A stretch of DNA of 64,000 bases from Alphaproteobacteria bacterium (GTDB lineage: Bacteria > Pseudomonadota > Alphaproteobacteria > SPJN01): assembly GCA_965229935.1 (NCBI GenBank), contig CBDDKB010000002.1, positions 1,283 through 65,282 of the forward strand, in the 5' to 3' direction. Positions within the stretch are counted from its first letter, which is position 1; each line of letters opens with the position of its first letter. The notes beneath the pieces were generated by a model that did not search any database, was not told where the DNA came from, and saw only the letters and a program-made list of their open reading frames with translations. Made by a program: the position numbers and the translations under genes. Positions 20,448-22,475 of the stretch are shown here, piece by piece.

Positions 20448-20735
20448 ATGGGGAAGAATGACGACAAAAAGCGTAATCGTAATCCCGGATTGATGATCGA
20501 GTACCGAGAACTCGGTACGATATCGATTGATGAACTCGCCCAAGCCATACTCACCGACATCAATGCTTTGAAGGACATTTACAATGTCCGCTATGTCACC
20601 GGCGTCCGTATGCGGATACCGGTTACGAATGAGTATGGTGAAGCGATTGTTGTTCGTCGGACCGGCGGCGGCACCTTGCTCAAGATTGATACGCATCACT
20701 ACCGGCCTCACTGTCTGGATTATGACGGACATTAG
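20448..20735 (+). CDS. Hypothetical protein, first gene of the xis-int cluster
   Basis: GGGAGG RBS before MGKNDDKK; 9 bp from the next gene. Confidence 0.65.
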   Translation: MGKNDDKKRNRNPGLMIEYRELGTISIDELAQAILTDINALKDIYNVRYVTGVRMRIPVTNEYGEAIVVRRTGGGTLLKIDTHHYRPHCLDYDGH

Positions 20736-20744
20736 GAGGGCGGT

Positions 20745-20981
20745 GTGACGGGACCACATTACATAGATTTGGATGAAGCGCGGCAGGTGCTGTCCGAAAT
20801 GGGTGTTGAGTTCAACAAACGGCAGATGAAGCGCGCGGCAGAGCCGGACGCGAATGGCAAACGAAAGCTGCCATTCTTCATCGATCCCATAGACGGCAGG
20901 CTGAAAATCGAAAAGCAGTCGCTCATCAATGTTTACAGAAAACGACAGATAGAGGCCGAGAACCATTTTACCTGTGGATAA
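20745..20981 (+). CDS. Small basic HTH-like protein, probable excisionase
   Basis: YIDLDEARQVL...KRQMKRAAE...KLPFF resembles Xis/AlpA-type folds; AGGAGG RBS; directly upstream of the integrase. Confidence 0.6.
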   Translation: MTGPHYIDLDEARQVLSEMGVEFNKRQMKRAAEPDANGKRKLPFFIDPIDGRLKIEKQSLINVYRKRQIEAENHFTCG

Positions 20982-21033
20982 GGTTCACAGGTTTCTTGAT
21001 CAAATGACTCGGCATCAGAAATTATGATTCTTA

Positions 21034-22203
21034 ATGGCAGACATAAGAAAGCGGGTAGGCAAGAAAGGCACCACATATCAGGTCCGATACCCCAGCAGCA
21101 CAACAAAATCAGGCTATGCGTTCAAAACATTTGATACGCTGAAAGAAGCGCGTGAGTTCCGCGAAAATTCAAAAGATTGGAAAGCCGCGAGCACGGCAAC
21201 CGGTATGACCGTGCCGGATGCGATTGATCAGTGGCCTGAAATCTGTGCCACAGAAGGGCGCGGCGGACGTGAGCCGGTGACGCGATACACATTCCAAAAT
21301 TACCGATACCTTGCAGATATTATGAAAGGTTTTGATTGGCCTTGTGATTTGGCCGAGCTGAAATCAACTGACGTGGTTGAGTTTCGGTCTTGGCTGTTGC
21401 GAACGCAGACACGCTATTTGGCGCGCAAGGTTTTGTCATGCTTTCAATCTGTGCTGAATGAAATGGCCCTTAGAGGCTATATTGAAACCAATGCTGCGTC
21501 TGGCGTATCGGTCCAAAATGCGACACGCTATAAAACGCCGGTTGAAATTCCGACCACAGATGAAATTTCAGGAATGCTTCGGGCGGCAGATCGGCTTGCC
21601 AACTCGAAGAATGCACAGATTGCTCAATCATGGGAGCGCTACCGCCCCATGATTTATTTGGCTATCGACTCAGGTATGCGCCCGCAAGAGTATCTTGCGC
21701 TTGGCGGAGACAGCATCAAAAGCAACGGTATCCAGGTGGAGCGAGCCATCGAGCGTTGCGGCAAGCTCTCTGTGCCCAAAACACGAGCATCGCGCCGTTT
21801 TATTGATATTAGTCCTGATGTGCTTGAGATGGTGATGCATTACAGGGATCACCATGCCACACCCAATATGTATGATCTGGTTTTCCCGACCAAAGGGGGG
21901 AAATGGCAGTGTATCAACAATTGGAGTAAGCGCTGTTTCGGCGCGCTTAGTGTTGAGGCCGGACTTCTTATGACGGTTGTTAAAAATGGAAAGACGACGG
22001 AGCGGCCCAAATATAAACCTTACTCGTTACGTCATTTCTATGCGTCGATGTTGATTGAACAGAGACTTAATCTCAAGCGCATTCAGACGTTGATGGGGCA
22101 TAGTAATATTTCAACAACATTCGATATCTATGGCCATTTGATCGATAAAGTCGAGCAGGAGCAGCATGGTGATCAAGGAATGTTATCTCGTCTGTTAACC
22201 TGA
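21034..22203 (+). CDS. Tyrosine recombinase/integrase
   Basis: N-terminal arm-binding-like segment (YQVRY), GMRPQE (Arg), PKT (Lys), YSLRH, MGHS, catalytic Tyr in DIYGH. Confidence 0.93.
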   Translation: MADIRKRVGKKGTTYQVRYPSSTTKSGYAFKTFDTLKEAREFRENSKDWKAASTATGMTVPDAIDQWPEICATEGRGGREPVTRYTFQNYRYLADIMKGFDWPCDLAELKSTDVVEFRSWLLRTQTRYLARKVLSCFQSVLNEMALRGYIETNAASGVSVQNATRYKTPVEIPTTDEISGMLRAADRLANSKNAQIAQSWERYRPMIYLAIDSGMRPQEYLALGGDSIKSNGIQVERAIERCGKLSVPKTRASRRFIDISPDVLEMVMHYRDHHATPNMYDLVFPTKGGKWQCINNWSKRCFGALSVEAGLLMTVVKNGKTTERPKYKPYSLRHFYASMLIEQRLNLKRIQTLMGHSNISTTFDIYGHLIDKVEQEQHGDQGMLSRLLT

Positions 22204-22475
22204 TTTTTCATGTGGCAAATCTGTGGCAAGTTCTCGCTAACCCGCAGAAGTAAAGGGATTAAAAACTGACTTTTAATCAGTAGGTCGAGGGTTCGAATCC
22301 CTCAGCGGTCACCACTTTCTTTTCAATGACTTAGCGGAATAATACGGAAAGAAACGGCTCTAAAGGGTCGTTTTTGCCACAACTTTTTGCCACATGAAAA
22401 ACCGCAGGAATCCGCCATTGTCTGAATCGGTCTGAAATTCCTTGTGGCAAGTTTGTGGCAAAAATGATGTGGCGA
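22204..22475. other. attP-like site of the tyrosine integrase (core plus arm repeats)
   Basis: TGTGGCAA-type repeats at 22211, 22222, 22374(rc), 22387(rc), 22443, 22454, 22468 flanking a tRNA-Lys 3' half. Confidence 0.75.
22265..22314 (+). pseudogene. 3' half of tRNA-Lys(TTT) (att core)
   Basis: ACTGA-CTTTTAA-TCAGT anticodon arm, GAGGG-TTCGAAT-CCCTC T arm, AGCGGTC-A-CCA; no 5' acceptor strand or D arm upstream. Confidence 0.88.

Follow-up and report, generated by a model that had tools for sequence, protein, structure and literature searches.

The closest described system to the locus discussed here is the tripartite integrative and conjugative element (ICE), for example ICEMcSym1271 of Mesorhizobium, which is described as carrying three sets of integrase, attP, and excisionase (PMC5882170). 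Such elements avoid splitting the chromosome by the ordered expression of their excisionases (PMC5882170). Islands inserted at tRNA genes, including the tycheposons, are described with one integrase each, which is a tyrosine recombinase in some and a large serine recombinase (LSR) in others (10.1101/2020.12.28.424599). In the Mesorhizobium mobilome, serine recombinases are reported on five integrative mobilizable elements (IMEs) and one ICE (PMC8627217). The locus considered here is a module made of a tyrosine integrase (Int2), a small open reading frame (ORF) upstream of it (orf78), and an unrecombined attP whose core is the 3' half of a tRNA-Lys gene. It lies in a stretch of 64,000 nucleotides, called the window below, from an Alphaproteobacteria bacterium (GenBank assembly GCA_965229935.1, contig CBDDKB010000002.1; G000:C2:1283-65282), the assembly consisting of a 3.07-Mb contig (C2) and a 26-kb contig. 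The module sits ~5 kb inside the left end of an island that is anchored at a different tRNA gene. It is probably a complete and functional spare integration module that is idle in this genome and is kept as a second anchor on the island.

The whole unrecombined attP, comprising a P arm, a core, and a P' arm, occupies 272 bp of the forward strand (22204..22475) and forms a conserved block in an alignment of eight loci (A1). The core (22264..22314, + strand) is the 3' 50 nt of a tRNA-Lys(TTT) gene, as identified from the sequence, from an alignment with the host tRNA-Lys, and from Rfam. It begins with the 5' strand of the anticodon stem (anticodon TTT, 22272-22274), continues over the T arm and the 3' acceptor strand, and ends in CCA, matching the 3' part of a tRNA. 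Rfam reports a partial tRNA at 22249-22303 (31.7 bits), while ARAGORN finds no complete tRNA at the core. No second copy of the fragment is present in the genome, the best other match being the host tRNA-Lys(TTT) over 37 nt at 92%.

Repeats of TGTGGCAA flank the core on both sides. The P arm contains two direct sites (22211-22218 and 22222-22229, + strand), and the P' arm contains two inverted sites (22374-22381 and 22387-22394, - strand) followed by a group of direct sites (22443..22475, + strand), namely TGTGGCAA at 22443 and 22454 and TGTGGCGA at 22468. When TGTGGCGA is included, two arm sites lie to the left of the core and five to the right, two of which are inverted; the inverted TGTGGCAA site located 67 nt ahead of the right pair is kept in most relatives. 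The window holds seven copies of TGTGGCAA against an expectation of 3.44 +/- 1.9, and six of the seven fall within 251 bp (22211-22461). Across the genome there are 156 copies in 3.07 Mb, and the attP is the sole spot with at least three in 300 bp. A 16-nt inverted pair is present at 22204/22386. A further box, AACCCGCAGAA, is found in both arms and hardly varies among relatives in A1; the copy in the P arm (22239-22249, + strand) is the shorter one, and the copy on the right extends to ...TCCGCCATT. The conserved AACCGCAGGAATCCGCCATT box (22400..22421, + strand) consists of invariant columns of that alignment. The AACCGCAGGAATCCGCCATT and AACCCGCAGAA boxes are possibly accessory sites for orf78 or a host factor. 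A terminator-like hairpin with a T run (22350..22375, + strand; RNAfold -11.1 kcal/mol) lies past the core and overlaps the first inverted arm site. Hairpins of <= -5 kcal/mol by RNAfold, each with a T run, occur in 45 of 70 sequences (69 related loci and the window), with stems that differ in sequence, and a simple consensus terminator scan makes no call at the 22350-22375 hairpin. One variant from a public run has nine changes within 22340-22370 and preserves the hairpin pairing.

Much of this anatomy had been described in an earlier note on the window. The two small ORFs and the integrase at 20448-22203 are present as it stated, as are the 50 nt of tRNA-Lys(TTT) past the integrase and the 16-nt inverted pair. 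Its count of two repeats on the left and five on the right holds once TGTGGCGA is counted, and the lack of a second tRNA-Lys fragment, which it had noted for the window, extends to the whole genome.

The note also reasoned that arms on both flanks distinguish an attP from an attL or attR, and the relatives of the module bear this out. A scan of a genome collection with Int2 retrieved seven loci, most of them marine, from Alpha- and Gammaproteobacteria, with identities of 50-89%. All seven keep both arms: past the integrase gene come two direct sites and the 3' half of a tRNA, then a single inverted site and a further two direct sites. Homology among them ends just after the last P' repeat pair (A1). 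The cores correspond to Lys-TTT in four loci, Pro-TGG in two, and Arg-TCT in one; the Lys-TTT core of L007 carries a compensatory change in the T stem. A more distant relative on pSymB of Sinorhizobium meliloti ml21 (45% Int2 identity) likewise has both arms, with a Gly-TCC core. Across the attP relatives as a whole, the core identities are Lys-TTT, Pro-TGG, Pro-GGG, Arg-TCT, Asp-GTC, Phe-GAA, and Gly-TCC, with compensatory T-stem variants GAGGG/CCCTC, CAGGG/CCCTG, and CGGGG/CCCCG.

A metagenome scan with the right-arm pair yielded 118 stretches that were classed by motif geometry. Sixty are attP-like, three are attL-like, and one more is attL-like with a short flank. Eight were matched through the left arm, and in seven of these a fragment and an inverted site are accompanied by a right pair that has diverged; in six, the P' arm is preceded by other sequence, such as an insertion or fragments in tandem, 24 show the pair only, and 16 are too short to class. 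In the four attL loci, a complete tRNA is followed by the P' arm (L042, Arg-CCG; L068, Arg-TCT; L082, Gly-GCC; L113, Val-GAC), neither the left pair nor an integrase lies upstream, and the acceptor stems of the tRNAs are fully paired. Their P' arms match that of the window at 96-115 of 148 nt, compared with 104/148 and 102/148 in the attP relatives L002 and L004. As these attL loci carry the same P' arm next to complete tRNAs, the right arm of the window belongs to the element and not to host DNA, and the site in the window is therefore a whole attP. With both arms around one core and no partner junction in the genome, it is, on comparative evidence, an unrecombined attP. The attL that could have overturned this assignment was sought elsewhere in the genome and none was found. 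The attL junctions found among relatives are at Arg, Arg, Gly, and Val tRNAs, none at tRNA-Lys.

Two loci, L025 (951-1330) and L112, harbor two tRNA 3' fragments in tandem, Lys-TTT and then Pro-GGG, ahead of a single P' arm; this arrangement looks like a record of successive recombination at one site. The paired TGTGGCAA motif is also present in 15 viral contigs of IMG/VR (L131-L145). A phage origin was considered and rejected, as eight of the 15 stretches have a nearby integrase only 21-27% identical to Int2 and seven have none. A plasmid origin of the many attP forms is not supported: the best plasmid match is an island on a chromid (45% identity), and each of the 88 plasmid records that give a match stays below 60% identity. 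The TGTGGCAA arm-site word may be older than the Int2 family.

Tyrosine recombinases share the catalytic set R-K-H-R-H/W-Y. Int2 (21034..22203, + strand; 389 aa) belongs to this class, scoring 50 bits against the Pfam Phage_integrase family (PF00589; cut-off 27.1) and matching phrog_1 integrase in PHROGs (E 1.3e-50). Residues R216, K249, R333, H356, and Y366 are invariant in an alignment of 34 sequences and align with the active site of Tn1549 Int in a profile search, giving five canonical positions out of six. The statement in the earlier note that the catalytic residues are intact holds for these five and fails at the second-box histidine, which is Y330. The AlphaFold2 (AF2) model of Int2 (predicted local distance difference test score, pLDDT, 89) opens with a three-stranded sheet and a helix within residues 4-51 (strands 4-9, 12-20, and 28-33; helix 36-51), followed by a low-confidence linker, a helical core-binding domain, and a catalytic domain. 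A separate N-terminal domain of the arm-binding type is predicted from this model. In a Foldseek search, Tn1549 Int ranks first (E 4e-13), and full-length lambda Int (1z1b) is aligned over 388 columns. The TGTGGCAA arm-type repeats are conserved on both sides of the core and may be bound by the N-terminal domain of Int2.

The small protein encoded by orf78 (20745..20981, + strand; 78 aa) is a predicted winged-helix protein and a candidate excisionase or directionality factor. It is detected by tblastn in 35 of 125 related loci, at 53-75% identity and always immediately upstream of Int2. It accompanies 31 of 36 loci with a full-length Int2, and the remaining five have <150 bp of upstream sequence. 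Its AF2 model (pLDDT 81) has a strand-helix-helix-wing-helix topology, which VIA-align matches to the excisionase of GIsul2 (Z 6.1), RdfS (Z 5.9), a putative Klebsiella excisionase (Z 5.5), and Pukovnik Xis (Z 5.2), with MerR N-domains also near the top. A Foldseek search of orf78 against the PDB returns nothing at E <=0.001, the top rows being EF-hand proteins at E ~0.1. Because the Z values are moderate, the role of orf78 as an excisionase or directionality factor is likely but not established; the term 'xis-like' applied to it previously is justified by a moderate fold resemblance only, as the protein is not named by any HMM (hidden Markov model) library. Further upstream lies orf95 (20448..20735, + strand; 95 aa), a conserved small ORF found by tblastn in 19 of 125 related loci. 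Neither orf95, orf78, orf61, nor a 194-aa ORF matches a family in Pfam, PHROGs, or NCBIfam.

Comparison of the window with its relative L001 provides a measure of selection. The Int2 proteins are identical at 346 of 390 translated positions (stop included; 89% protein identity), and the genes at 75% of nucleotides, with a proportion of nonsynonymous differences (pN) of 0.081 and of synonymous differences (pS) of 0.837, the latter saturated, so that pN/pS is ~0.1. The non-coding attP is 93.4% identical over 258 nt and is thus more constrained than the synonymous sites of int2 in the same pair. This divergence pattern indicates that the Int2 module is under strong purifying selection. The earlier description of the module as 'unused' is true of this copy, but selection acts on the module.

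The presence of two independent recombinase systems on one element, as proposed in the earlier note, is supported by the tRNA-fMet repeats and the LSR at the island edge on one hand and Int2 on the other, and the same arrangement is found among the relatives. A second recombinase lies upstream of Int2 in six of the seven genomic loci, the seventh (L006) having only 838 bp of flank. Five of the seven have a complete tRNA of another identity (Arg-CCG in three, Arg-TCG, and Phe) 1.9-3.6 kb upstream with a different tyrosine integrase beside it, and L001 has an LSR at the contig edge. Among 18 metagenome loci with at least 2.5 kb of upstream sequence, eight have an LSR and three more a tyrosine integrase, and a complete tRNA is in range in seven. 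On pSymB of S. meliloti, the order is a tRNA-Arg(CCG) overlapped by an LSR, small ORFs, Int2, and the attP with its Gly-TCC core, followed by genes for ArdC-like, ankyrin, and coupling proteins; this locus has the architecture of the window in a named organism. Since most relatives with enough flank have another recombinase by a different complete tRNA, the layout with two integration kits is a family trait and not a one-off, and at least three kinds of primary recombinase occur with the same Int2 module. For L002-L005 and L007, no direct repeats of the neighboring tRNA were found in a 10-kb range, which places Int2 inside those islands unless the repeats are short. The first genes past the P' arm differ in each relative (window, L002, L005, L006, L053, and L054) and often have defense or anti-defense functions, including Fic, ArdA/ArdC, type I restriction-modification, DNA methylase, Shedu, and AAA_13.

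The host genome encodes a single tRNA-Lys(TTT) (C2:1127400-1127475), besides one tRNA-Lys(CTT). The earlier note had regarded the host tRNA-Lys as a possible partner of this attP. When the gene is compared with the core, only the 23 nt around the anticodon arm are common to both, and the two diverge in the T stem and acceptor strand. Joining the host 5' half to the 3' half of the element would give a tRNA with three of seven acceptor pairs mismatched, in place of the only AAA-reading tRNA of the host. The attP and the host tRNA-Lys(TTT) are both on the + strand of C2, in direct orientation and 1.10 Mb apart. Because of this orientation, recombination between them would excise the intervening DNA and split the chromosome, leaving a mispaired tRNA; of the two outcomes named previously, splitting or inverting the chromosome, splitting stands and inversion does not. 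The module is idle in this host because it has no usable tRNA target there.

These observations can be assembled into a model of how the module would work. It resembles the lambda/Tn916 type, with a heterobivalent Int2, the winged-helix orf78, and the 272-bp attP as its parts. The TGTGGCAA arm sites on the two flanks would be bound by the N-terminal domain of Int2, and the anticodon stem-loop in the tRNA-Lys-like core would be where its core-binding and catalytic domains act. On integration, the 3' half of a cognate tRNA-Lys would be exchanged for the copy carried by the element, followed by the element's own hairpin, which may terminate the rebuilt tRNA gene. In the present host, recombination with the single tRNA-Lys(TTT) would produce a mispaired tRNA and a chromosome cut in two. 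The module would be retained as a second anchor for hosts that have a cognate tRNA or whose primary site is unusable.

Several observations weigh against this model. The natural target of the Lys-type attP is missing, which is the main gap in the argument. A cognate tRNA with the last 25 nt of the respective attP core is found in none of six host genomes, where the only match is the attP itself; matches were accepted with <=2 mismatches in G001 and G002 and <=3 in G403-G405, and blastn-short was used for G000, the five other hosts being two complete chromosomes of metagenome-assembled genomes and three drafts. The cognate tRNA-Lys is also absent from 400 sampled genomes of the class, where the sole match is a tRNA-Leu, and from 400 sampled genomes of the phylum, a sample and not proof. 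Sixty attP-like stretches against three attL-like ones and one with a short flank is an odd ratio for an integration module, and seven of the eight metagenome matches found through the left arm are also attP-like. No attL of this geometry has a tRNA-Lys, those found being Arg, Arg, Gly, and Val; the island behind the attL of L068 looks short or decayed, and an attR is absent within 6 kb of it. Seven of the 18 well-flanked metagenome loci have no second recombinase within 5 kb. With respect to the proteins, orf78 has no HMM family and its fold matches (Z 5-7) are in a range that the tool calls common, and the second-box His of Int2 is replaced by a Tyr (Y330) that faces the usual His of Tn1549 Int. 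This replacement is present in at least 90% of the 34 family members and hence is a family trait, not damage. The evidence that Int2 recombines, in this element and in its relatives, is wholly comparative.

The strongest rival to a spare integration module is that the unrecombined attP is itself the working state, serving to resolve multimers after rolling-circle transfer, to form cointegrates with conjugative helper elements, or to act as a docking or exchange site beside the variable cargo. It would account for the ~94% of sampled copies that are unrecombined, for the absence of the cognate tRNA from all six hosts and 800 sampled genomes, and for a conservation of the site far above neutral expectation; the homology that stops exactly past the P' arm, with different next genes (Fic, restriction-modification, Shedu, ArdC, and others), and the two different tRNA fragments in tandem ahead of one P' arm in L025 and L112 also suit it. 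Resolution or docking, on the other hand, would have no need of a core that is a faithful tRNA 3' half to CCA, with changing identity and compensatory T stems, and true attL junctions with well-paired tRNAs exist. The break at the end of the P' arm fits selection on the whole attP, whereas site-specific exchange predicts a break in the core. In lambda and Tn916, two arms and an excisionase partner constitute the layout of a directional integration system, and the two arms and excisionase-like partner seen here have that same layout. On balance, this rival is considered improbable.

Two simpler explanations fare worse. The Int2 module could be a fossil, the functionless remnant of a separate small island that was picked up by the LSR element, in keeping with its lack of use in this genome, the missing target, and the loss of one canonical catalytic His. 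This is very unlikely given that all ORFs are intact, that pN/pS is ~0.1 with saturated synonymous sites, and that the non-coding attP is 93% conserved; in addition, orf78 occurs with Int2 at every locus having upstream sequence, the His-to-Tyr change is common to at least 90% of 34 members, and the module is linked to at least three primary recombinase kinds. An integrase beside a partial tRNA is normally read as the end of an island, and the integrase and tRNA fragment have exactly that appearance. As an ordinary attR, they would bound a tyrosine-integrase island on the right, and its attL would be found at another place. The 3.1-Mb assembly has no complete tRNA-Lys with this 3' half, no second fragment or repeat cluster, and no partner junction. 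The core has arm sites to its left and right, the right arm shares homology with the P' arm of attL junctions at other loci, and what follows on the right (Fic, ArdA, the coupling protein, and the relaxase) belongs to the island bounded by the tRNA-fMet repeats. For this assembly, the attR reading is refuted unless unassembled sequence contains a matching attL, and its probability is close to nil.

The spare-module reading, which is preferred here, can be extended to a broader proposal that is put forward tentatively and is less likely to hold than not to. In it, the cassette of Int2, orf78, and attP would give a whole family of mobilizable islands, marine and soil, a second anchor that is portable and deliberately left unrecombined, either as bet-hedging or because the attP itself is the working form. 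In the bet-hedging version, an island could establish itself in a host with only one of the two tRNA targets and could become bipartite where both exist. In the more radical version, the attP would be a docking or cointegration site beside variable defense and anti-defense cargo. If true, these islands would represent a class of multi-recombinase islands not previously described.

The island that carries the module begins at the end of an rRNA operon (16S, 11138-12602; 23S, 13682-16425; 5S, 16809-16923), in which tRNA-fMet(CAT) (17308..17384, + strand) is the last gene according to ARAGORN and Rfam and constitutes the attachment point. A 22-bp direct repeat (repeat family D6), formed by the last 21 nt of tRNA-fMet and one further base, is present at the tRNA-fMet 3' end (17364..17385, + strand) and, 100% identical, at the right end of the island (60652..60673, + strand). 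The adjacent LSR gene (17341..18999, - strand; 552 aa) encodes all three Pfam domains of its class (Resolvase, Recombinase, and the zinc ribbon Zn_ribbon_recom) and gives CcrB/XisF matches in NCBIfam below the cut-off. Its final codons overlap the 3' end of tRNA-fMet on the opposite strand. From its position and the repeats, the LSR is presumed to be the primary integrase that inserted the island into the 3' end of tRNA-fMet. Both in the window (17341-17384) and on S. meliloti pSymB (L130 3493-3522), the LSR gene has its 3' end opposite that of a tRNA gene, so that the C-terminus of the LSR would change on excision.

The region 17364-60673 is a ~43.3-kb IME at tRNA-fMet, bounded by att repeats and encoding a relaxase and a coupling protein, with no type IV secretion or mating-pair family among the 45 ORFs scanned with Pfam (15 of them without any family). 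The first variable cargo gene past the attP encodes a Fic/DOC protein with DUF4172 (22478..23587, - strand; Pfam). A type IV coupling protein (29561..31198, - strand; Pfam T4SS-DNA_transf, E 1.6e-67) and a MobA/VirD2-type relaxase (32613..34211, + strand; Pfam Relaxase, E 6.6e-15) lie further to the right, and Pfam also identifies an ArdA-like protein and an ankyrin protein. The region 35299-59459 is a dense metal-resistance block of czc/cop/cus-type genes in Pfam, consisting of a czc-like RND (resistance-nodulation-division) system, a cus-like RND system with HMBD domains, a cation diffusion facilitator (CDF) transporter, a CopA-like multicopper oxidase, CopB, a P-type ATPase, a MerR regulator, and an HMA protein.

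Further traces of the tRNA gene lie near both ends of the island. Just upstream of tRNA-fMet (17147-17325) are two exact 76-bp tandem repeats and the start of a third, each of which opens with the first ~18 nt of tRNA-fMet; these may be scars of earlier recombination at tRNA-fMet. At the right end, there are three segments resembling the tRNA-fMet 3' end (60172-60196; 60381-60402, 77% identical; and 60652-60673, exact), which suggests serial insertions or decay at one site. A similar fMet-like segment of 25 nt is located inside the island (31387-31411).

Contigs identical over ~17350-26000 are present in the public runs X1, X2, and X6, which carry three other coded organism labels and come from three studies, and they run uninterrupted through the attP with no differences. 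Near-identical contigs come from invertebrate-gut, marsh, and marine metagenomes. No RNA run is listed among the matching runs. No joint falls at the attP core among the 15 of 24 contig joints listed; because rare recombinants cannot show in contigs, these are uninformative on Int2 activity. Loose contig ends at 22264 and 22302 are tRNA-Lys genes of other organisms.

The module has consequences for annotation, ecology, genome stability, and tool development. Since the integrase and partial tRNA here form an internal whole attP, as they do in dozens of relatives, boundary callers would mis-delimit such islands. Two tRNA anchors on a metal-efflux island (copper and cobalt/zinc/cadmium-type) would widen its host range, a reading that fits the absence of the cognate tRNA from all six hosts. 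Where both targets are on one chromosome, the second reaction would invert or split it, and the Int2 family may be a simpler natural system in which to study this risk. The family also combines related integrases and one arm-site code with at least 11 tRNA cores (seven attP forms and four attL junctions), and is a possible source of orthogonal integration systems.

Relative to known elements, the module shares features with several groups and differs from each. A description of the Int2 family or of an internal unrecombined attP in islands was not found in the literature covered. Like the IMEs of the Mesorhizobium mobilome, the island carries an LSR at the edge and genes for mobilization, with no mating-pair apparatus; no second integrase with an attP of its own is mentioned in the text consulted on those elements (PMC8627217). 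Like P4-type islands and tycheposons, it has a partial tRNA beside an integrase, an arrangement in which the tRNA is restored on insertion; in those islands, as described, the partial tRNA is the island end (attR/attL), whereas here it is an internal unrecombined attP (10.1101/2020.12.28.424599).

In common with the Int systems of lambda, Tn916, and Tn1549, the module has predicted arm-binding, core-binding, and catalytic domains, arm repeats on both sides, and a small winged-helix partner. The best sequence and fold matches of Int2 are Tn1549 Int and lambda Int, yet identity is only 15-19%. Unlike these systems, Int2 has a Tyr in place of the second-box His, its core is a tRNA 3' half, and the module is unrecombined inside an island that is anchored by another enzyme. 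The tripartite ICEs resemble the island in having several integrase/attP pairs on one element (here the LSR and Int2), each pair in the ICE having its own excisionase and its own target, and in the risk that a wrongly ordered reaction splits the chromosome into non-viable parts (PMC5882170). They differ in that all three attP sites are recombined at rest, such that the element resides in three pieces, whereas here the attP is whole and the island is in one piece in a host without the second target (PMC5882170). As described, all of their recombinases are tyrosine recombinases and the elements are self-conjugative, in contrast with the Int2-bearing islands, in which the primary enzyme is often a serine recombinase and which, like the one in the window, are merely mobilizable (PMC5882170).

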